Under the pieces are notes generated by a model. It was not told the DNA's origin. It did no database searches and saw only the letters and a list, made by a program, of their open reading frames with translations. Shown here one piece after another: positions 7,454 through 42,396 of a stretch of 44,240 nucleotides of DNA. Each line of letters opens with the position of its first letter. Within the stretch, counting starts at the first letter, position 1. The translations under genes were made by a program, and so were the position numbers. Source of the stretch: Escherichia phage NTEC3; sequence record NC_073318.1; one strand, given 5' to 3'.

Positions 7454-8725
7454 TTAAAGTGCGAAAGTCACCGGGACGTTAATAACTGGTTTGCGAATCG
7501 GCATTTCATACGCGATAGGGTATGTGGTTCCATCATTCTGGTGGTCCACACCGCCTGATTTATCCGGTTCGCCGTTCTTGTCGTAAGCCTGTTGCTCCAG
7601 GCATCGTGCGGTAACAGGGCAAGCCTGTTCATTAATCATGACCATACCAGATTCAAGCGCCTTATTCATCGCCGCTACGCGGTCTTTAACCGGTGGGTTT
7701 GTCGATTTAGCGCGCACTTCGAAGCCGGCCTGCTGTAACTGGGCAATATCAGATGTGCTGGCGTTGTTACTTTTACGGTTTTTACCGCTTGCGTCGGGGT
7801 ACATAACGATATAGTGGCCCTTACTTTTCCAGCGCTCTGTTACGGCTCTCACCACATCGGGCGTATCGAACATATCCACCAACTCGGCGACTGCATGCCA
7901 GACTTTGCCACGTTGCACGTAAACTGTACTAGCCATGTGGCCTACGTTAAAGTCCTGCCCGATATACAGAGTCTCGCCTGGTTTTATTGTTTCGCGGCTG
8001 CTGTTTTTCCTGCGGTCATAGGCGTAATAGACAGTCCCCGCCGTCAGGTTGACGAACTCGCCGTTGATGTAGGCGTCAATCAACTGACCTGGGTATGTGT
8101 CGCGTAACGACTGCACATAATCTTCTGGCAGGAACGGGTTAGACAGGGTGGACGCCTGAATCATCTCGTAGCCTGGATTCTTTTTGACTACCCAGCGGTC
8201 ATGTACGAAACGGAATCCTTCCGGGGTAGTGAACACGGAAACGGTATTAGCAGGTTTCGGTGTAATAGGTTTATATGTCCGCGGCAACTGGCGGTTACGG
8301 GCGATGACTTTGTTCCACGCGTGCTCGGCGTGCTCCATGTTAAGGGTGTCCAACTCGTCGATTTTCGCACGAAACGATTCGTAGCCAACGATTCGTGCTG
8401 GATTATCAAGTGTACGCAGAACAAAATCCCCAAATTGTCCGGAAGACGTATAGATTATGTTGTCAGACTTGTTGTATTTGTACCGGATACCCCAGTCGGT
8501 GAGCTTTTCTTCCATACGCGGTGCAAGGATGAGGCGCACCAGGTCATAAGTCGGCTCATACATGGCGATGATAGAATCGCTACCACCTTCCATGCTGTCG
8601 AGTAGTGCAGAGTTGCACATAACTTCGGATTTACCCGTACCGAAGCCAGCTACGAATGCCGGAAACTTGCAATGCATACCGAGAAACGCGCCTTGCGGCT
8701 CCGTTGCCGTGATATTAACGTTCAC
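7454..8725 (-). CDS. terL: terminase large subunit
   Basis: 423 aa; Walker A GFGTGKS near N-terminus; follows small terminase with an 11 nt overlap. Confidence 0.8.
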   Translation of the reverse strand: MNVNITATEPQGAFLGMHCKFPAFVAGFGTGKSEVMCNSALLDSMEGGSDSIIAMYEPTYDLVRLILAPRMEEKLTDWGIRYKYNKSDNIIYTSSGQFGDFVLRTLDNPARIVGYESFRAKIDELDTLNMEHAEHAWNKVIARNRQLPRTYKPITPKPANTVSVFTTPEGFRFVHDRWVVKKNPGYEMIQASTLSNPFLPEDYVQSLRDTYPGQLIDAYINGEFVNLTAGTVYYAYDRRKNSSRETIKPGETLYIGQDFNVGHMASTVYVQRGKVWHAVAELVDMFDTPDVVRAVTERWKSKGHYIVMYPDASGKNRKSNNASTSDIAQLQQAGFEVRAKSTNPPVKDRVAAMNKALESGMVMINEQACPVTARCLEQQAYDKNGEPDKSGGVDHQNDGTTYPIAYEMPIRKPVINVPVTFAL

Positions 8726-9224
8726 CGGACACCACCTTAATTGTTACTTCGCTGATTGGCTCGTCGCGTACTTCTTCGGCGACAACTGTTTTATTCAGGC
8801 CCAGTTTCGCGGCAGCAAACGTAGCAGAGATGCCCGCGGCCCCCGTTTCAGTGAAGTATGCCTCTTCCAGCGCCTGTGCTGTCTCCCAGGCTTCTGCAAA
8901 TGCGGGAATCTCACGCAGCCAAAGCTTAATAATCGGGATAGTGACTCCGATGTGTAAGGCGAAGCGGGCCAGTGACGGTGGTTTATCCTGAATCAGCGGG
9001 CGTTCGTCACCCTTAGACGTTGGCACAAGCTCCCACGACGTGCGGTCGAAGAACTCGATTAACGCGTCACAGTAGTCCGGGTCCCACAATGCCGCAGAAT
9101 TACGGGATGATTGATAAAGGCTCTGTTTACCGCGCGGTCGTTTACGGCGACGGTTTGCGCTAACAGCTTCTTCATGTGCAGCTTGTACCACCTCTGGCGA
9201 TGGCTGCTTAAGTTTCAGCTTCAT
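8715..9224 (-). CDS. terS: terminase small subunit (candidate)
   Basis: ORF track gives 8715-9263; start more likely ATG at 9224 (MKLKLKQ) with RBS AAGGGGA; basic N-terminus, helix-rich, directly upstream of terL. Confidence 0.55.
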   Translation of the reverse strand: MKLKLKQPSPEVVQAAHEEAVSANRRRKRPRGKQSLYQSSRNSAALWDPDYCDALIEFFDRTSWELVPTSKGDERPLIQDKPPSLARFALHIGVTIPIIKLWLREIPAFAEAWETAQALEEAYFTETGAAGISATFAAAKLGLNKTVVAEEVRDEPISEVTIKVVSGER

Positions 9225-12638: not shown

Positions 12639-13076
12639 TTATCCTAATAGTTGTTTGGTAATAATCTTGCCGCCGGTGTTGGTGTCGAACTTAGATGCAA
12701 CTGCTACGCCACCATGTGCTGAATACCCACACTCCATAGCCGCCAGTGCATATGACGAGCCAGACCCTACGGCGGCAAAGCCGTCTGCAATTGGAATAAC
12801 AGAACTTAGAGTGCAATCCCAAGATTTGTAGAACTCCACCTTATACAACGTTTCAATGTCTTTAACCCATACCAAAGCAGAGAAATCAAAATCATAATGC
12901 TTAGGCACTAAAATACTATCGTCCTTCACTAAAAGGATACCAGCTTCAGCATTACCCGCTACACCGATAACAGCAAACTCGTTCTCATATATCTTGGTAT
13001 CTGTGTTGTAGATGTGGTCCCCGGCTACTCGGGTGTCACAGGCCATTGTCTTTCCGTCAAACGCGATAGTAGTCAT
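12639..13076 (-). CDS. HslV-like proteasome-type Ntn-hydrolase peptidase
   Basis: 145 aa; N-terminus MTTIAFDG...AGDH mirrors HslV Thr1 region; VIGVAGNAEAG and AAVGSGSSYALAA match HslV GFAG and GSG motifs. Confidence 0.6.
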   Translation of the reverse strand: MTTIAFDGKTMACDTRVAGDHIYNTDTKIYENEFAVIGVAGNAEAGILLVKDDSILVPKHYDFDFSALVWVKDIETLYKVEFYKSWDCTLSSVIPIADGFAAVGSGSSYALAAMECGYSAHGGVAVASKFDTNTGGKIITKQLLG

Positions 13077-13390
13077 TTATGTCTCCAGATGTATTGTCGT
13101 CTCTGTGGTTTCGTCGGAATATCATCGTACCCCAGCGATTTCCAGTAATTAAATAGCCGGTTCGCGATAGCTGCGCGTTCCTTTGTTTTAAACTCACCGA
13201 GATTCACGGCCTTTCCGTTCTGGAATCCACAGGCGTGGATAGCTTTACGCCGTTCTTGTATCTCTGGGTACAGCACGTTACGGCGACGCTTGTGTATACG
13301 TGTCTTCGCTCTCGGTGACAGCGGCGCAAGGCCGCTTCGTTTCAGGATGTCAGTTGCAAGGCTCATTGCGATACTTCTCCAGAATCTCAC
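13073..13390 (-). CDS. hypothetical basic protein, translationally coupled to HslV-like gene
   Basis: 105 aa, Arg/Lys-rich; its stop overlaps the HslV-like start (ATGA). Confidence 0.4.
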   Translation of the reverse strand: MRFWRSIAMSLATDILKRSGLAPLSPRAKTRIHKRRRNVLYPEIQERRKAIHACGFQNGKAVNLGEFKTKERAAIANRLFNYWKSLGYDDIPTKPQRRQYIWRHK

Positions 13391-13646
13391 CTACTCTATC
13401 GTATGCATATTCGTCCGGTATTACGCCGTAACCCAGGTCGTTGTCCAGCTTAACTAACATATCGAGTATATCGTTGAGTTCGGCTTCGAGTTTCGCGTAG
13501 TCTTCGTAACTTACATAACGCCCTTCATGAGAGTCCGGAACAGGCGTTATATCTACCACGCCACTCGCGCAGTCTTCTGTTAAATCGTAGCGTATAACCA
13601 TCACTCCACCCCCTCCACATGTGTAACTGACCCGCAGTTCGCGCAC
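13350..13646 (-). CDS. tandem paralog family member C (acidic small protein)
   Basis: Likely true start MVIRYDL (internal); shares MVxRY N-terminus with the two upstream paralogs. Confidence 0.45.
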   Translation of the reverse strand: MRELRVSYTCGGGGVMVIRYDLTEDCASGVVDITPVPDSHEGRYVSYEDYAKLEAELNDILDMLVKLDNDLGYGVIPDEYAYDRVGEILEKYRNEPCN

Positions 13647-13690
13647 TCGACGTAATCAGGGTACTGGTCTTTGTATTTCTGTAGCTCGGC
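13601..13690. repeat. direct repeat copy 1 (about 90 bp) from tandem gene duplication
   Basis: About 90% identical to 13870-13959 (shared CACATGTGTAACTGACC...CAGTTCGCGCACTCGACGTAATC core). Confidence 0.7.
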
Positions 13691-13915
13691 GTTTACTTCT
13701 GCCAGTCTCGACACAAGCCCTTCTATTTCCTTGTCGGCGTCGGCTAGACGTTCCTGGTAATAGTCGTCCAGTTCCTTATAGCTGTCGTACTCTACATAAT
13801 CGCCGTATGCGTACTCAGCCATCTCAGGCTCTGGCAGGCCCCACGCTTTTACCTCATATCTCTGTACCATTACTCCACCCCTCCCACATGTGTAACTGAC
13901 CCACAGTTCGCGCAC
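13601..13915 (-). CDS. tandem paralog family member B (acidic, C-terminal CxxC)
   Basis: Likely start MVQRYEV; C-terminal ELQKYKDQYPDYVECANCGSVTHVEGVE nearly identical to paralog A. Confidence 0.5.
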   Translation of the reverse strand: MRELWVSYTCGRGGVMVQRYEVKAWGLPEPEMAEYAYGDYVEYDSYKELDDYYQERLADADKEIEGLVSRLAEVNAELQKYKDQYPDYVECANCGSVTHVEGVE

Positions 13916-13959
13916 TCGACGTAATCCGGGAACTGGTCCTTGTATTTCTGTAACTCGGC
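13870..13959. repeat. direct repeat copy 2
   Basis: Matches 13601-13690; encodes the conserved C-termini of paralogs A and B. Confidence 0.7.
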
Positions 13960-14145
13960 TTCAACTTCCAACAGCTTTAGGTCAAGATTCTGGTAGTCCT
14001 CAAACTTAACCCACTTCCCGTGGCGGTCAATGAAATGGTTGTCGGACCCATACTTAGAATATCTCTGTACCATGTTATTTCTCCTGTTTTCCAAGTCGCT
14101 TAGGTGAGCAGATAGCGCGTACCTCTGAATCGTTGGGCTTGTCAC
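13870..14145 (-). CDS. tandem paralog family member A (acidic, C-terminal CxxC)
   Basis: Contains MVQRY...ELQKYKDQFPDYVECANCGSVTHVGGVE. Confidence 0.5.
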   Translation of the reverse strand: MTSPTIQRYALSAHLSDLENRRNNMVQRYSKYGSDNHFIDRHGKWVKFEDYQNLDLKLLEVEAELQKYKDQFPDYVECANCGSVTHVGGVE

Positions 14146-14278
14146 CCTGAAACAGAAAGTGCGCGTTCTCGGCGGCGCGTGCCGCTGACTGGCACGCCTC
14201 CATCGAGTAAAACGTTTCTGATGCCGCCAGGTGCATCTGGCCTGCGGACAGTACCCAGATAAATAAGATGCTGGTCAT
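14075..14278 (-). CDS. small secreted protein (signal peptide, two Cys)
   Basis: 67 aa; hydrophobic N-terminus ILFIWVLSAGQMHLAA followed by polar mature part; overlaps both neighbours. Confidence 0.4.
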   Translation of the reverse strand: MTSILFIWVLSAGQMHLAASETFYSMEACQSAARAAENAHFLFQGDKPNDSEVRAICSPKRLGKQEK

Positions 14279-14748
14279 TTGATTTTCCCGTGGTTGTCGT
14301 GAAACCCATATTTGTTCTCAGCGTCGGCCCTCGCTGCTCTTGCGGCAGAAAGGTCGTCGAAATATCCTAAATGTACATTTTTACCGTTAACCTTTATGGT
14401 CCCTTTCCATTTACCCGCACGCTGGAACCAATACACTCCAGTAACACCTGACCGGTTGTTGGCGGCTAATTTTGTGTTTCTATGGTTTTCGGATGCTGTT
14501 ACTTTCCTAAGATTGCACAAACGATTGTCACTACGGTCGTGATTTATGTGGTCTATTTGCTCCCCTGGGTGAAGTAAATCGTCGGGGTTAAACATGTCCC
14601 ATATTATTCGATGTGCGCGGTACTGCCTCTTTTCGACCTTCAACACAACATAGCCATCCCTATTCTTACACGTTACTTTTGCTGAGGTCTTCTTCCATGA
14701 AAGAATGCCGGTAGTATGGTCATAATCGAATAGTGTGTGCCATTTCAT
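14275..14748 (-). CDS. HNH homing endonuclease with AP2-like DNA-binding domain
   Basis: IDHINHDRSDNRLCNLRKVTASENHRN HNH motif; GVTGVYW...GKWKGTIKVNGKNVHLGYFDD AP2-like segment. Confidence 0.75.
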   Translation of the reverse strand: MKWHTLFDYDHTTGILSWKKTSAKVTCKNRDGYVVLKVEKRQYRAHRIIWDMFNPDDLLHPGEQIDHINHDRSDNRLCNLRKVTASENHRNTKLAANNRSGVTGVYWFQRAGKWKGTIKVNGKNVHLGYFDDLSAARAARADAENKYGFHDNHGKIK

Positions 14749-15212
14749 TTGTTGTCAGCGTCCCATTTTCGGCAACCAGATTGCTCCCACCCGTACCTGC
14801 CCTTGCAGATAAGTTTGTACGACTCCACGTCACCTGTGGCCTCAGCCAGCTGTTTTGTCAGGCCCTTAACTTGCCCTGTCAGGTGCGATATGTGCTCAGA
14901 TTTCTTAATGTTGTCTTCCTGTAACTCGGCCACCAGCGACGAAGCATCACGTAACTGGTTTTTAAGTGACTGCACCTCATGCGCCAGGTCTTCGCACTGG
15001 CTGTTATTTACCTGCTGCCGTAAACTGTCTTTCAGCGCTCGTATTTCGTCATCCTTACCGGCGATATGCTGCTGTAGGTTGTGAATTACCTGCTTGACCT
15101 CATCAAGGTCGGATATCCGCACAGACACATTGAAAGATGTGACATCTTTCTTATTTACCTGCTGCCGTAGTTGGTCAATCAGGTACTCGAATACTTCGTT
15201 TTTGTTACTCAT
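14745..15212 (-). CDS. coiled-coil protein, unknown function
   Basis: 155 aa, heptad-rich (LRQQVN repeats), overlaps HNH gene start. Confidence 0.45.
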   Translation of the reverse strand: MSNKNEVFEYLIDQLRQQVNKKDVTSFNVSVRISDLDEVKQVIHNLQQHIAGKDDEIRALKDSLRQQVNNSQCEDLAHEVQSLKNQLRDASSLVAELQEDNIKKSEHISHLTGQVKGLTKQLAEATGDVESYKLICKGRYGWEQSGCRKWDADNK

Positions 15213-15406
15213 ACTACGTCTCCTACTAACCCAACCTTCATGACGCCGCGTTCACCTTTCTTGCCTGCACGAAGCCACTCACGCGCAACTTTCTCATCAG
15301 TGAACACAAATTTCGGTACGTGCTTTCCGTCGGGGGCGATAACCCACGCCGACCATACCGGGGTAACTTTAATCAAATGCTCGTTTTTAGTATTCATATT
15401 CTTCAC
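15209..15406 (-). CDS. hypothetical protein
   Basis: 65 aa ORF, overlapping neighbour. Confidence 0.4.
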   Translation of the reverse strand: MKNMNTKNEHLIKVTPVWSAWVIAPDGKHVPKFVFTDEKVAREWLRAGKKGERGVMKVGLVGDVV

Positions 15407-39353: not shown

Positions 39354-40484
39354 ATGGCCCGGAAGAAAATAACCGACGAACAGTTGCAGGAAGAATTGAA
39401 CGCCGGGATGAAGAATATCGATATCGCCCGTAAATACGGAATCTCAGACCGCGTTATTCGTATCCGTAAAGCGAAGCTGGCTAAGAAAGGTGTAGGCCAC
39501 GGGCGTGACGTTAGCCACCTTGTCCCAGACGGCTACAAGATTAAAGGGACGTCGTCCCTGGTGGACGAGTTCGGCAACACTAAGTTGCAATGGGTTAAGA
39601 CCGACGCTGATGCCGAACGTCAGGTTGAATTGATGAAAGCCGTAATAGAGGGCATGAAGTCAGAGATTACGCCCGTTGCGCCTGTTAAACCGGCACGAGC
39701 CAAACGTGACGATAAACTACTCAATCTTTACACGGTATCTGATTTCCATCTCGGTATGCTGGCATGGGCCGATGAGAGCGGCGACGACTGGGACATGAAG
39801 ATTGCAGAAGACCTGTTCTCTCGGTGGTTCGACGCGGCGTTTCAGAAAGCACCGGATGCAGGAACAGGAGTTATTAACCTGCTTGGCGACCTTGCACACT
39901 TCGATAGTCTGGACGCCGTTACCCCGGCAAGTGGTCATGTTCTCGATGCGGACACGCGCTACCAGAAACTGGTTCGCTACATGATTCGTATGGTCCGCCG
40001 TGTTGTCGATATGGCCCTTGTTAAGCATAAAAATGTTCGCTTGCTTATCGTACAAGGGAACCACGACGAAAGCGGAATGATTTGGTTAGCTGAGATGTTC
40101 AGTACGCTGTACGACAATGAGCCTCGTGTGTTCGTCGATACGTCGCCGGATGTTTACAAGATGGTGCAACACGGCAAAACGACGCTGTTCTTTACACACG
40201 GGCATAAATGCCGGTTTGAGGTGGTCGAACCCATTATGATAGCTAAGTTCAGAAAAGCATTTGGCGAAAGCGAGTACAGTTACGCACATGTCGGTCATCT
40301 CCACCATCAAAAGATTGTAGAAAGTAGGAATATGGTAGTGGAACAACATCGCACTCTCGCGGCGAAAGATGCATATGCTTCCCGCGGTGGGTGGATGTCT
40401 AAGAGGTCCGCTAATGTCATAACCTATAGTTCAGAGTTCGGGGAAGTAGGTAGGCTTTCGATCTCACCGGAGATGCTAAGATGA
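39354..40484 (+). CDS. HTH domain fused to calcineurin-like / SbcD-Mre11-like metallophosphoesterase
   Basis: N-terminal HTH (NIDIARKYGISDRVIRIRK); phosphoesterase motifs SDFHLG, GDLAHFD, QGNHDE, THGH, VGHLHH in canonical order. Confidence 0.65.
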   Translation: MARKKITDEQLQEELNAGMKNIDIARKYGISDRVIRIRKAKLAKKGVGHGRDVSHLVPDGYKIKGTSSLVDEFGNTKLQWVKTDADAERQVELMKAVIEGMKSEITPVAPVKPARAKRDDKLLNLYTVSDFHLGMLAWADESGDDWDMKIAEDLFSRWFDAAFQKAPDAGTGVINLLGDLAHFDSLDAVTPASGHVLDADTRYQKLVRYMIRMVRRVVDMALVKHKNVRLLIVQGNHDESGMIWLAEMFSTLYDNEPRVFVDTSPDVYKMVQHGKTTLFFTHGHKCRFEVVEPIMIAKFRKAFGESEYSYAHVGHLHHQKIVESRNMVVEQHRTLAAKDAYASRGGWMSKRSANVITYSSEFGEVGRLSISPEMLR

Positions 40485-40951
40485 AGTACCTTGATGTTTC
40501 AAAACAATTTAAATACTGCCCTGATACTGGGCAGGTTACCAGGATATCTACTGGTGCTGAGGTTGGTACGGTTGGTGTAAGAGGCTATCTGTGCTGCGGT
40601 ATGGGTGGCAAAACAGTGTATGTCCACCGCATAGCATGGTGTCTTTATAATAAATGTGACTTAGACAGGAAAACTCAAATAGACCACATAAACCATAACA
40701 GGCTAGACAATAGAATAGAAAATCTACGCGCCACCGACAATACAGGGAACAGTAAAAATAAAACTATGAGAAAGATAAATAAATCCGGGGCTACAGGTGT
40801 AAGTTTCCACAAAGCCGCGGGTAAGTGGCGCGCGTTTATAAAAGTTAACTACAAACAAGTGCATTTAGGGCTTTACGACGATTTTGATGTAGCGGTTGCC
40901 GCGCGTAAAGCCGCCGAGAGTAAATACGGTTTCCATGAAAACCATGAGTAG
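40481..40951 (+). CDS. HNH homing endonuclease with AP2-like domain (paralog of 14275-14748)
   Basis: IDHINHNRLDNRIENLRATDN HNH motif; GVSFHKAAGKWRAFIKVNYKQVHLGLYDD AP2-like segment; ATGA overlap with upstream gene. Confidence 0.75.
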   Translation: MKYLDVSKQFKYCPDTGQVTRISTGAEVGTVGVRGYLCCGMGGKTVYVHRIAWCLYNKCDLDRKTQIDHINHNRLDNRIENLRATDNTGNSKNKTMRKINKSGATGVSFHKAAGKWRAFIKVNYKQVHLGLYDDFDVAVAARKAAESKYGFHENHE

Positions 40952-40964
40952 GGGAGATTGATTT

Positions 40965-41195
40965 ATGACTTCAAAATACAACCGCACAATGACAAATACT
41001 CACGGCAGCACTATGACAGTAGACGTTTATGATGTGCTCCGCGCCTTCGATATACGCGACCCGGCGCTACAGCACGCATTGAAGAAGCTATTGTGCATGG
41101 GCTTGCGCGGACACAAGGACACCGGAACCGACTTAGCGGAAGCAATTGAAAGTCTGGAGAAGTTACGGGAATACCGAAGCAATATTGATGAGTAA
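40965..41195 (+). CDS. hypothetical protein, last gene of accessory operon
   Basis: 76 aa ORF, 14 nt after HNH gene, followed by terminator. Confidence 0.45.
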   Translation: MTSKYNRTMTNTHGSTMTVDVYDVLRAFDIRDPALQHALKKLLCMGLRGHKDTGTDLAEAIESLEKLREYRSNIDE

Positions 41196-41226
41196 GAAAA
41201 AGGCCCCGAAAGGGGCCTTAGTTTTA
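41196..41226. terminator. bidirectional terminator between accessory operon and major tail gene
   Basis: AAGGCCCC-GAAA-GGGGCCTT hairpin; plus strand followed by AGTTTTA, minus strand by TTTTTCTTA. Confidence 0.6.
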
Positions 41227-42396
41227 TGCGTAGGTGATACGTTGAATTACGATAGACGACTGGTACTGGTTGCCGGTGGCCTGCCCCTCAATGGACTGAG
41301 TGATTGACTCAGGTCCGCCAATCTCTGGGGTAACTGCCGTAAGCTCCGCACGTTTCAGGCTGAAAGACATAGCCCCGTTTACCCCCGCCAGAATAGAGTT
41401 AATCTCTACCTGCTGCTCGTTGATAAACTTCTGAATCATCGCCATGTCATACAGCTTGCCGGAGATGGAGAAGGTGTTAGCCGCGCGGCTACGTTCCACA
41501 AACGCAACGTTAGAGTTGCCGAGTTCGAACTGTGCGGACGCGCTGTTGTCGTTGGTGATGGTAAGGCTATCACAACGCAACGGCGTAGAGCCATCGAACA
41601 CGGAAACGTCAACCGAAGAGAATGGCTCATCACCAAAAGTAATAGATGAGAAGTTGGAACCGGTCGGCGGCGTAGTGAGAATCTCCTGACTGCGACCGAT
41701 GAATGGGAAGCTGCCGGTTACCATAGCGTTAACTGCCTGCTCAATAGTGAAACCAGAAACTTCCACGCCTTTGGTTAGTGTGTATGCGTCAGTCCCGCCG
41801 CACTGTCCTTTGTACCAGGTGAGAATAGAGAACGTCTTACATGTGTTACCGGTTTCCAGCGTGTCGCCAGTTTTAGCCTTACTAGTTTTTGTCTCGGTGG
41901 TCAGGGTGTGTTGGATGCCTGCACCAGTAACAACGGTAGCCGTTACTGCGGTAACAATAAATGGTTTTGCGTTATCGCCTGTTAAGTCGGTAAACGCAAT
42001 CAGGTCGCCTACCCCAACTCCGTCAGTGATAAAACTGCCGGTAGCGCGTGTGAACGTCTTGCCCGCGGGCGCGACGGTGATCGATAGTCCTGGCAGAGAA
42101 ACACCGGATTGCCACGTAGAGCCTAAAGCACCTGCCAACCAGTCATCCTGGCTTTTAGAGCTAAGCTCAATTGCGTATTCACCGCTAACCTGTTTGTTAC
42201 CGGTGCGGATGGATGTAGTTTCACGGCTGCCGTCGAGTTCGTTGGAGGTCAGTGTGTCACGGGTAATGGCAGGAACACCGCCCGTGTTACGTAATGGTGA
42301 CCAGACCGGGTTAGTCGGTGTTACACCCGGGGTCACTTCCGCCACATAGAATTGCGCGGTATTCGCGCCCTTAAAAGGAGTTGTAGCCATATTCAC
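41224..42396 (-). CDS. major tail protein (candidate)
   Basis: 390 aa Thr/Gly/Ser-rich ORF upstream (in transcription order) of G/GT and tape measure. Confidence 0.5.
   Translation of the reverse strand: MNMATTPFKGANTAQFYVAEVTPGVTPTNPVWSPLRNTGGVPAITRDTLTSNELDGSRETTSIRTGNKQVSGEYAIELSSKSQDDWLAGALGSTWQSGVSLPGLSITVAPAGKTFTRATGSFITDGVGVGDLIAFTDLTGDNAKPFIVTAVTATVVTGAGIQHTLTTETKTSKAKTGDTLETGNTCKTFSILTWYKGQCGGTDAYTLTKGVEVSGFTIEQAVNAMVTGSFPFIGRSQEILTTPPTGSNFSSITFGDEPFSSVDVSVFDGSTPLRCDSLTITNDNSASAQFELGNSNVAFVERSRAANTFSISGKLYDMAMIQKFINEQQVEINSILAGVNGAMSFSLKRAELTAVTPEIGGPESITQSIEGQATGNQYQSSIVIQRITYA

Follow-up and report, generated by a model that had tools for sequence, protein, structure and literature searches.

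Two open reading frames in the 44,240-nucleotide window, which is the whole stretch of phage DNA analysed here, encode small proteins in which an HNH nuclease core is followed by an AP2-like C-terminal region. They raise the question of how two such genes came to lie at two unrelated places in one genome and whether they are mobile. The closest record in a megablast search is Escherichia phage vB_EcoS_SCS92 (ON548432.1; Guernseyvirinae, Kagunavirus), which matches the window in length (44,240 bp) and in coordinates; SCS92 is used below as the name of the window's genome. The two sequences differ by 1,461 patchily distributed substitutions, none of them within the two HNH genes or the phosphoesterase gene that precedes the second. 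The first gene, HNH1 (14275-14748, minus strand; 157 aa; UTQ72459.1), is identical to its ON548432.1 counterpart, where it is annotated as "homing endonuclease", and the second, HNH2 (40481-40951, plus strand; 156 aa; UTQ72495.1), is annotated there as "HNH homing endonuclease".

We consider it probable that HNH1 and HNH2 are free-standing selfish homing endonuclease genes (HEGs) of the HNN-AP2 class that entered this Kagunavirus independently. The comparisons that point to this reveal, for HNH2, a precise insertion polymorphism, co-transfer of a flank and incongruence with the rest of the genome, and for HNH1 a precise insertion polymorphism. Such genes are a real, ordinary and known kind of element, and as a discovery they carry little weight. 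Both are already annotated, and the HNN-AP2 family and its selfish lifestyle are textbook material; what is new is the comparative evidence for mobility, the precise description of the HNH2 cassette and its transfer between genera.

HNH1 belongs to a cluster of early genes that read leftward, with a coiled-coil gene (14745-15212) upstream of it and a 67-aa gene (14075-14278) downstream. HNH2 is part of a rightward four-gene island within the leftward tail module, where it is preceded by a metallophosphoesterase gene (39354-40484) and followed by a 76-aa gene (40965-41195), and a terminator-like hairpin at 41200-41219 marks the end of the island. Both are separate open reading frames flanked by other genes and outside any intron or intein. 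The original prediction that they are free-standing and unrelated in function to their neighbors is supported. Each has an ATGA overlap with its upstream neighbor, and a promoter scan found no promoter-like site 5' of either gene, so that HNH1 and HNH2 do not appear to be independent transcription units. The promoter and terminator counts did not exceed those of shuffled controls, and these scans lend weak support at most to operon embedding.

Domain architecture and family of the two proteins

Over 147 residues the HNH1 and HNH2 proteins share 45% identity (E=1e-39), a similarity well past chance, and their translations contain the HNH core motifs IDHINHDRSDNR and IDHINHNRLDNR and the C-terminal motifs KYGFHDNH and KYGFHENH, respectively. 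Both match PHROG 99, "HNH endonuclease" (HNH1 E=3e-59, HNH2 E=1e-55), and both pass the gathering threshold of 24.8 bits for Pfam HNH_3 (PF13392), with scores of 51.3 bits for HNH1 and 39.4 bits for HNH2. The same Pfam scan gave no match to PF01844 in either protein. The Pfam AP2 family (PF00847) scores 19.7 bits in HNH1 and 19.8 bits in HNH2, both under its gathering threshold of 33.3, and a precomputed PF00847 match is present in some close homologs.

A family alignment of 46 members, both window proteins included, was used for profile searches. In this alignment D66, H67, N88 and N91 (HNH1 numbering) are invariant and N75 and N79 are at least 90% conserved, and the family profile aligns the HNH residues with the VDH...NLR...N segment of I-HmuI. 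[quoted passage not shown] I-HmuI and the AP2 domains emerged only with the profile; the single HNH1 sequence, searched against the PDB, returned nothing but spurious matches, to PCF11 and to a lectin repeat.

An AlphaFold model of HNH1 (pLDDT 86), by which HNH2 is represented through its 45% identity, agrees with these assignments. The predicted HNH1 nuclease core (14479-14622, minus strand; residues 43-90; HNH_3), with the six conserved residues, has strands 63-67 and 80-84 and helix 85-90 arranged as an I-HmuI-like beta-beta-alpha-metal fold. The C-terminal part has strands 105-108, 113-120 and 123-130 followed by helix 133-146, and this arrangement of three strands and a helix defines the predicted AP2-type DNA-binding domain (14308-14451, minus strand; residues 100-147). 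The top fold match of the model in the PDB is 1U3E (E=8.4e-5, probability 1.00), with AP2 domains next, among them TEM1 at probability 1.00 and AtERF1 (1GCC) with an rmsd of 1.7 Å over 49 columns and a target TM of 0.64. In HNH2 the predicted nuclease core (40616-40750, plus strand; residues 46-90; HNH_3) keeps the D, H, N, N columns, and the predicted AP2-type domain (40793-40927, plus strand; residues 105-149) aligns with that of HNH1. Profile and model together confirm the AP2 assignment of the C-terminal regions despite the subthreshold Pfam score. The original prediction of two HNH-AP2 open reading frames with these motifs is therefore confirmed by the translations, the HNH_3 matches, the profile and the fold. 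HNH_3 and AP2 modules belong to group 2 of the His-Me finger nucleases, together with I-HmuI (PMC5714182), and the matches in both genes place them in the HNN-AP2 class of this group.

Members of the HNN-AP2 family occur in 3,053 phage records, with up to four at various loci in a single Guernseyvirinae genome. The two window genes were originally described as paralogous, which holds for membership in one family and not for duplication within the genome. HNH1 has at least 120 database clusters that are nearer to it than HNH2, which scores below all 120 listed, and an in-genome duplication as the origin of the pair is rejected on this ground. Together with the complete identity of the HNH2 protein to Salmonella phage copies, the closer clusters point to independent acquisitions, and HNH1 and HNH2 are separate lineages of the family. 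Comparisons of HNH2 copies give dN/dS ratios of 0.05-0.22, and that of HNH1 with its 96% identical homolog gives 0.11; few substitutions underlie these estimates, which are consistent with purifying selection on both genes and a maintained function.

The HNH2 cassette at the phosphoesterase junction

Of the roughly 411 related records, 37 carry HNH2 at its locus (29 from Salmonella and 8 from Escherichia, with RefSeq duplicates counted), and HNH1 is at its locus in 1 of 323. Universal presence of both genes at the same loci, the distribution that would have spoken against the original prediction, is thereby ruled out, which favors that prediction. The HNH2 polymorphism is a clean 484-bp indel at an ATGA junction between the phosphoesterase gene and the 76-aa gene, and the insertion occupies 40485-40968 on the plus strand. 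Empty sites are found in Bas73, phage 26, NBSal006 and phi135, where the stop codon of the phosphoesterase gene and the start codon of the 76-aa gene overlap (...CACCGGAGATGCTGGG-ATGA-CTTCAAAATAC). Filled sites are found in SCS92, 590B, EC3-1, AV104, HSE2, Ro145clw and Salmonella phage S100. In these, ATGA stands at both ends of the insert, so that its placement, as seen when Bas73 and phage 26 are compared with Ro145clw and S100, is ambiguous by 4 nt. The 3' spacer of HNH2 (40952-40964, 13 nt, GGGAGATTGATTT) places a GGAG Shine-Dalgarno sequence 8 nt before the ATG of the 76-aa gene. As read from the sequence, the GGAG inside the phosphoesterase 3' end now serves HNH2, and GGGAGATTGATTT restores a GGAG at equal 8-nt spacing.

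The upstream flank is tied to the insertion. The 100 nt before the insert (40385-40484) are at least 97% identical in exactly the 37 HNH2-positive records, and the next best match anywhere is 74%. This stretch belongs to an HNH2-specific allele of the phosphoesterase gene (40344-40484, plus strand; the last 46 codons, about 130 nt) that differs from the HNH-free sister genome in 26% of nucleotides and by 6 amino acid changes. The differences between S100 and its HNH2-free sister phi135 are essentially the insert and these 46 codons, in which 36 of 138 nt differ, against about 5% elsewhere. All six amino acid changes are at sites where the HNH2-free genomes of both genera encode identical residues. 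We regard the 40344-40484 tract as a candidate target-site or immunity tract.

A longer flank was co-transferred between genera. In a sliding-window comparison of SCS92 with S100, identity is 58-85% over phosphoesterase nt 1 to about 800, 95-100% from there through the whole insert, and about 72-74% just past it, where the 76-aa gene (40965-41195, plus strand) is again of Kagunavirus type. Segment means of six HNH2-positive Kagunaviruses against Jerseyvirus S100 are 75.2% for phosphoesterase nt 1-750, 95.7% for nt 801-1131 (40154-40484, plus strand; range 94-98%), 97.9% for the insert, 81.3% for the 76-aa gene and 68.4% for the major tail gene. The cassette also varies least of these segments within Kagunavirus (96.7-97.3% identity). 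SCS92, EC3-1 and S100 share one HNH2 protein sequence (100% identity), and the gene is 99% identical in nucleotides between SCS92 and S100, so that the HNH2 phylogeny is incongruent with the host genome, in which the tail genes of the same two phages are 68% identical. Between the Kagunaviruses of Escherichia coli and the Jerseyviruses of Salmonella, identity is 96-99% in the cassette and 68-81% in the flanking genes, which is evidence of a recent transfer, and these comparisons indicate that HNH2 moved recently between the Salmonella and E. coli phage genera.

The source of the cassette appears to have been a Jerseyvirus background, since phosphoesterase nt 801-990 of the Kagunaviruses resembles phi135. 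We infer that the most likely direction was from Jerseyvirus to Kagunavirus, with about 330 nt of upstream flank and essentially none downstream. The island itself did not move. The original prediction held that the HNH gene inside the tail-module island may have contributed to its mobility; the island, however, lies at the same place throughout the Guernseyvirinae (411 records). Since about 411 records have it there and 90% of them lack HNH2, the island is rejected as a mobile element carried by HNH2. It is best regarded as a conserved feature of the subfamily, and only the last ~330 nt of the phosphoesterase gene appear to have travelled with HNH2.

The upstream boundary of the tract is roughly common to the six HNH2-positive Kagunaviruses, which a single import followed by ordinary recombination fits as well as repeated homing. 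General mosaic exchange, in place of nuclease-driven conversion, could in principle also account for the high identity of the cassette. It is possible, and we hold it tentatively, that HNH2 is a currently active cross-genus homing cassette that targets the conserved junction of the phosphoesterase and 76-aa genes and converts the upstream flank only. If this is true, then some Salmonella Jerseyviruses and E. coli Kagunaviruses coinfect a common host in nature, HNH2 could be an inter-phage weapon that excludes a competitor's markers, and for the first time an HNH-AP2 phage endonuclease would have its natural target and immunity allele defined.

HNH1 at the coiled-coil gene junction

Among the 323 records that cover the HNH1 region, SCS92 is the sole full match, and the junction is empty in the other 322. 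The next best phage homolog in a tblastn search is about 50% identical, and IMG/VR holds no relative closer than 50%. A large protein database contains a homolog at 96% (P0001) and three more at 64-68%. Outside SCS92, an HNH1-type gene is found at this junction only in four metagenomic contigs. P0001 itself lies there in two of them (L013 and L014), with 93% nucleotide identity from window position 14849 to 14059, and in another contig (L017) a 68% identical homolog is followed by a homolog of the 67-aa gene. HNH1 appears to be rare and without sign of recent spread.

In the HNH1-free Bas72 and Bas73, the coiled-coil gene directly adjoins the 67-aa gene, and 99% homology to SCS92 restarts a few bases from the HNH1 stop. 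The downstream flank (geneA, the 67-aa gene; 14075-14278, minus strand), whose start overlaps the HNH1 stop at an ATGA, is 99% identical in HNH1-free relatives up to the junction. The upstream flank (geneB, the coiled-coil gene; 14745-15212, minus strand), whose stop overlaps the HNH1 start, again at an ATGA, is truncated after EQSGCRK relative to HNH1-free phages: it ends early in SCS92 (...EQSGCRKWDADNK*), whereas in Bas72 and Bas73 it extends into longer Cys-rich C-termini. Its new 3' end (14749-14765, minus strand) encodes ...WDADNK*, and these 17 nt match no phage record except SCS92; in a blastn search with 14749-14860, other records align only from query position 18 on. The early stop and the unmatched last 17 nt suggest that HNH1 replaced the 3' end of the coiled-coil gene. 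In the sister phage 590B there is a gap of 740 bp (window 14242-14981) at a CTGGC microhomology. It leaves an in-frame fusion in which the N-terminal half of the coiled-coil protein continues into the C-terminal part of the 67-aa product, and the simplest reading is a deletion that removed HNH1.

These features bear on the possibility that both genes are relics, which arrived as homing endonucleases or as passive mosaic cargo, have lost homing and now persist as neutral operon passengers. Such a history is more plausible for HNH1 than for HNH2. HNH1 is known from one phage record and a handful of contigs, and its flanks, in which only 17 nt are unique and the L013 identities are uninformative, carry no clear co-conversion signal. 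For HNH2, the similar tract boundary in all HNH2-positive Kagunaviruses is compatible with one import, and gain followed by degeneration is the usual fate of HNN-AP2 genes (Lee et al., PMC2248197). We nevertheless consider it unlikely that the genes are relics, because both open reading frames are full length with all invariant catalytic and AP2 residues intact, dN/dS is about 0.1 for both, the flank variant is tied to HNH2 in 37 of 37 records, and the 96-99% identity of the HNH2 cassette across genera whose flanking genes are 68-81% identical requires a recent transfer.

Tandem Repeats Finder detected no array in the 13000-15400 region around HNH1. As a separate observation, three small open reading frames near HNH1 in this region are clearly paralogous to one another.

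Other functions, related endonucleases and a proposed homing model

A second alternative is that the nucleases have been domesticated, either for packaging, in the manner of the HNH protein gp74 of HK97, or as a repair or recombination accessory to the phosphoesterase. HNH2 is translationally coupled to a metallophosphoesterase that is annotated as "DNA repair exonuclease", and homing and domesticated HNH proteins are inseparable by bioinformatics alone (Barth et al., PMC10448857). We regard domestication as very improbable all the same. The phosphoesterase gene occurs without HNH2 in about 90% of relatives and HNH1 is absent from all other matching records, which means that neither gene can be essential; the terminase genes lie at 7454-9224, with neither HNH gene adjacent; and both proteins belong with I-HmuI to HNH_3 and group 2, whereas the HNH proteins of packaging fall into group 1 with PF01844 (PMC5714182). 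A terminase-associated packaging HNH is rejected on position, on family (no PF01844) and on sporadic distribution. Equally improbable is that the proteins are AP2-based DNA-binding regulators or silencers in which the nuclease is inactive or secondary, comparable to the CasPR anti-CRISPR repressors and plant AP2 factors: although transcription factors or silencers have repeatedly arisen by co-option of AP2 domains of HEG-like ancestry (10.64898/2026.02.23.707548; PMC10448857), the D-H...N...N catalytic set is invariant in the family and present in both proteins, the whole protein is under apparent purifying selection, CasPRs combine CapR with AP2 without HNH and occur in Bacillota phages (10.64898/2026.02.23.707548), and the distribution of HNH1 and HNH2 is that of a mobile insertion, and a regulatory role is rejected on position, family and distribution.

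The reading of HNH1 and HNH2 as selfish HEGs also places them among known enzymes. The HNN-AP2 class has been known since 2004-2007 (Magnani et al. 2004; Lee et al. 2007, PMC2248197), and its free-standing endonucleases were described in Xanthomonas phages Xp10, OP1 and Xop411, with T1, Rtp, T5 and RB16/RB43 as further carriers (PMC2248197). Like HNH1 and HNH2, these enzymes have an N-terminal HNN HNH_3 core without Cys dyads, DH...DNR...NLR...N boxes and a C-terminal AP2 domain; they are about 155-170 aa long, and they occur in dispersed multiple copies at variable positions with gain and loss (PMC2248197). Nothing categorical separates the two window proteins from them. The enzymes of Lee et al. 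lacked conserved flanks, and a sequence-independent transmission was suggested for them (PMC2248197), whereas HNH2 has a defined junction, a linked flank allele and a co-transferred tract, which point to site-specific homing. Among the papers searched we found no biochemical characterization of any phage HNH-AP2 enzyme; the SCS92 paper does not mention the endonucleases, and the 590B and Jerseyvirus papers ignore or merely list such genes. The original assignment to the homing endonucleases is well supported by the HNH_3 core, the AP2 domain and the lateral-transfer and co-conversion signature of HNH2.

I-HmuI, from Bacillus phage SPO1, nicks one strand, and it is the best match of the family among solved structures by both profile and fold. 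It shares with HNH1 and HNH2 an N-terminal beta-rich DNA-contacting region and an HNN beta-beta-alpha-metal core. It differs in being intron-encoded and in having C-terminal helical and helix-turn-helix DNA-binding modules in place of AP2. The AP2 fold of HNH1, a three-stranded sheet on a helix, is that of AtERF1 (1GCC), TEM1 (7ET4), WRI1 (7WQ5) and PF14_0633 (3IGM), with a significant family-profile match, although the plant and apicomplexan AP2/ERF proteins are transcription factors without a nuclease and the phage domains fall under the Pfam AP2 threshold.

A homing cycle for the two genes can be proposed on this basis. In a mixed infection of a HEG-carrying phage and a HEG-free relative, the AP2 domain would bind a sequence at or near the empty junction, the I-HmuI-like core would then nick or cut the HEG-free genome at the junction, and recombinational repair on the HEG-carrying template would copy the HEG and adjacent markers into the recipient. 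Cleavage of related phage genomes during coinfection, which was part of the original prediction, is plausible as a predicted activity of both enzymes. The HNH2 target would most likely lie within the strongly conserved phosphoesterase 3' end and its junction, and the ~130-nt variant allele, together with the insertion, would shield HEG-carrying genomes. To be expressed, HNH2 would usurp the translational coupling signal at the phosphoesterase 3' end, and the replacement ribosome-binding site for the displaced 76-aa gene would make the insertion cheap for the phage. HNH1 would represent a rare lineage that inserted at the junction of the coiled-coil and 67-aa genes and replaced the upstream 3' end, with the 590B deletion as a loss.

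The HNH2 locus is a useful test case: filled and empty alleles exist in nature, the candidate target is short and conserved, and a candidate immunity allele is linked to the insertion. It is convenient for learning how HNH-AP2 enzymes recognize and cut DNA. It also bears evidence that phage genera of Salmonella and E. coli exchanged DNA recently. Guernseyvirinae are used in phage therapy cocktails, and the locus could be used to gauge HEG-driven mosaicism in this subfamily.

In ICP1 and other phages, HEGs mark where genetic exchange begins and ends (Barth et al. 2023, PMC10448857). Like the genes described here, the free-standing HEGs of T4-like phages and ICP1 (Seg, Mob; T5orf172, IPA-HNH) are intergenic and near conserved genes, mark exchange boundaries with flanking co-conversion, and include distinct HEGs that share one hotspot between isolates (PMC10448857). 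They differ in being GIY-YIG enzymes or in combining HNH with a zinc finger, and the IPA-HNH domains of ICP1 are too divergent for Pfam HNH_3 (PMC10448857), whereas HNH1 and HNH2 match it well; the exchange of HNH2, unlike theirs, spans two phage genera with different host genera. The phosphoesterase/76-aa locus is likewise a HEG hotspot: in Salmonella phage CTH7 the identical junction is occupied by a different HNH-AP2 gene with 37% identity to HNH2, and Ro145clw has a third HNH-AP2 gene, located after the 76-aa gene.

HNH-AP2 genes around the phosphoesterase gene

The island, a rightward four-gene block within the leftward tail module, is a hotspot for the HNH-AP2 family. HNH2, the HNH-AP2 gene at 40481-40951 on the plus strand, lies there between the phosphoesterase gene (39354-40484) and a gene for a 76-aa protein (40965-41195). 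At exactly the same phosphoesterase/76-aa junction, the Salmonella phage CTH7 carries a different HNH-AP2 gene (L011 2531-3004), whose 157-aa product is 37% identical to HNH2. Phage Ro145clw possesses HNH2 together with a third HNH-AP2 gene positioned after the 76-aa gene (L006 2740-3228), encoding a 162-aa protein with 40% identity to HNH1, the HNH-AP2 protein encoded at 14275-14748 on the minus strand.

The phosphoesterase gene has no annotated CDS in the record of the sister phage 590B (MW722821.1). It is not a pseudogene: the ORF is intact, encodes 376 aa and retains the HNH2-linked C-terminus (L021 1355-2485), and so its absence from the record is an annotation gap.

Relatives differ in the cargo that follows the phosphoesterase gene. 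A polynucleotide kinase-phosphatase and a hypothetical gene replace the 76-aa gene in phage K1ind1 (L012 3628-4667), and the Jerseyviruses encode an additional Roi-like DNA-binding protein downstream of the phosphoesterase gene (Salmonella phage S100, L007 4301-4972). Kagunaviruses that are otherwise close show strong mosaicism in the major tail gene adjoining the island (41224-42390, minus strand), with pairwise identities of 81-92%; SCS92 groups with HSE2, and 590B with AV104 and Ro145clw, groupings that differ from those of the phosphoesterase gene.

A deletion spanning the HNH1 position in 590B

The whole HNH1 position is absent from 590B through a 740-bp deletion with CTGGC microhomology (window 14242-14981; L002 1926-1942). 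It joins in frame the first 72 residues of the upstream coiled-coil gene product (14745-15212, minus strand) and the last 53 residues of the downstream 67-aa protein (14075-14278, minus strand), and the 125-aa product is annotated in 590B as a single hypothetical protein.

The coiled-coil gene is hypervariable (homologues at L003 1976-2389 and L004 1911-2456). SCS92 and 590B share an internal insertion of approximately 50 residues; the cysteine-rich, zinc-ribbon-like C-termini differ between the relatives Bas72 and Bas73 and are missing from SCS92.

Close downstream of HNH1 are three overlapping, paralogous small ORFs of 98, 104 and 91 aa (13350-14145, minus strand), none of which matched Pfam. 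Two of the three have in common an N-terminal motif, MRELRVSYTCGGGGVMV, and two of the three a C-terminal motif, ELQKYKDQ(F/Y)PDYVECANCGSVTHV. A segment of about 103 nt is repeated within this region at a spacing of about 269 nt with 88% identity; Tandem Repeats Finder detected no array there.

Divergence from the deposited SCS92 record

Compared over its whole length with the deposited record of SCS92 (ON548432.1, L001), the window shows 1,461 substitutions (3.3%), and indels are absent. These substitutions occur only in patches, and within conserved genes most of them are synonymous; in the helicase-primase, for example, 144 codons carry synonymous and 18 carry non-synonymous changes. Some kilobase blocks, both HNH loci among them, are identical.
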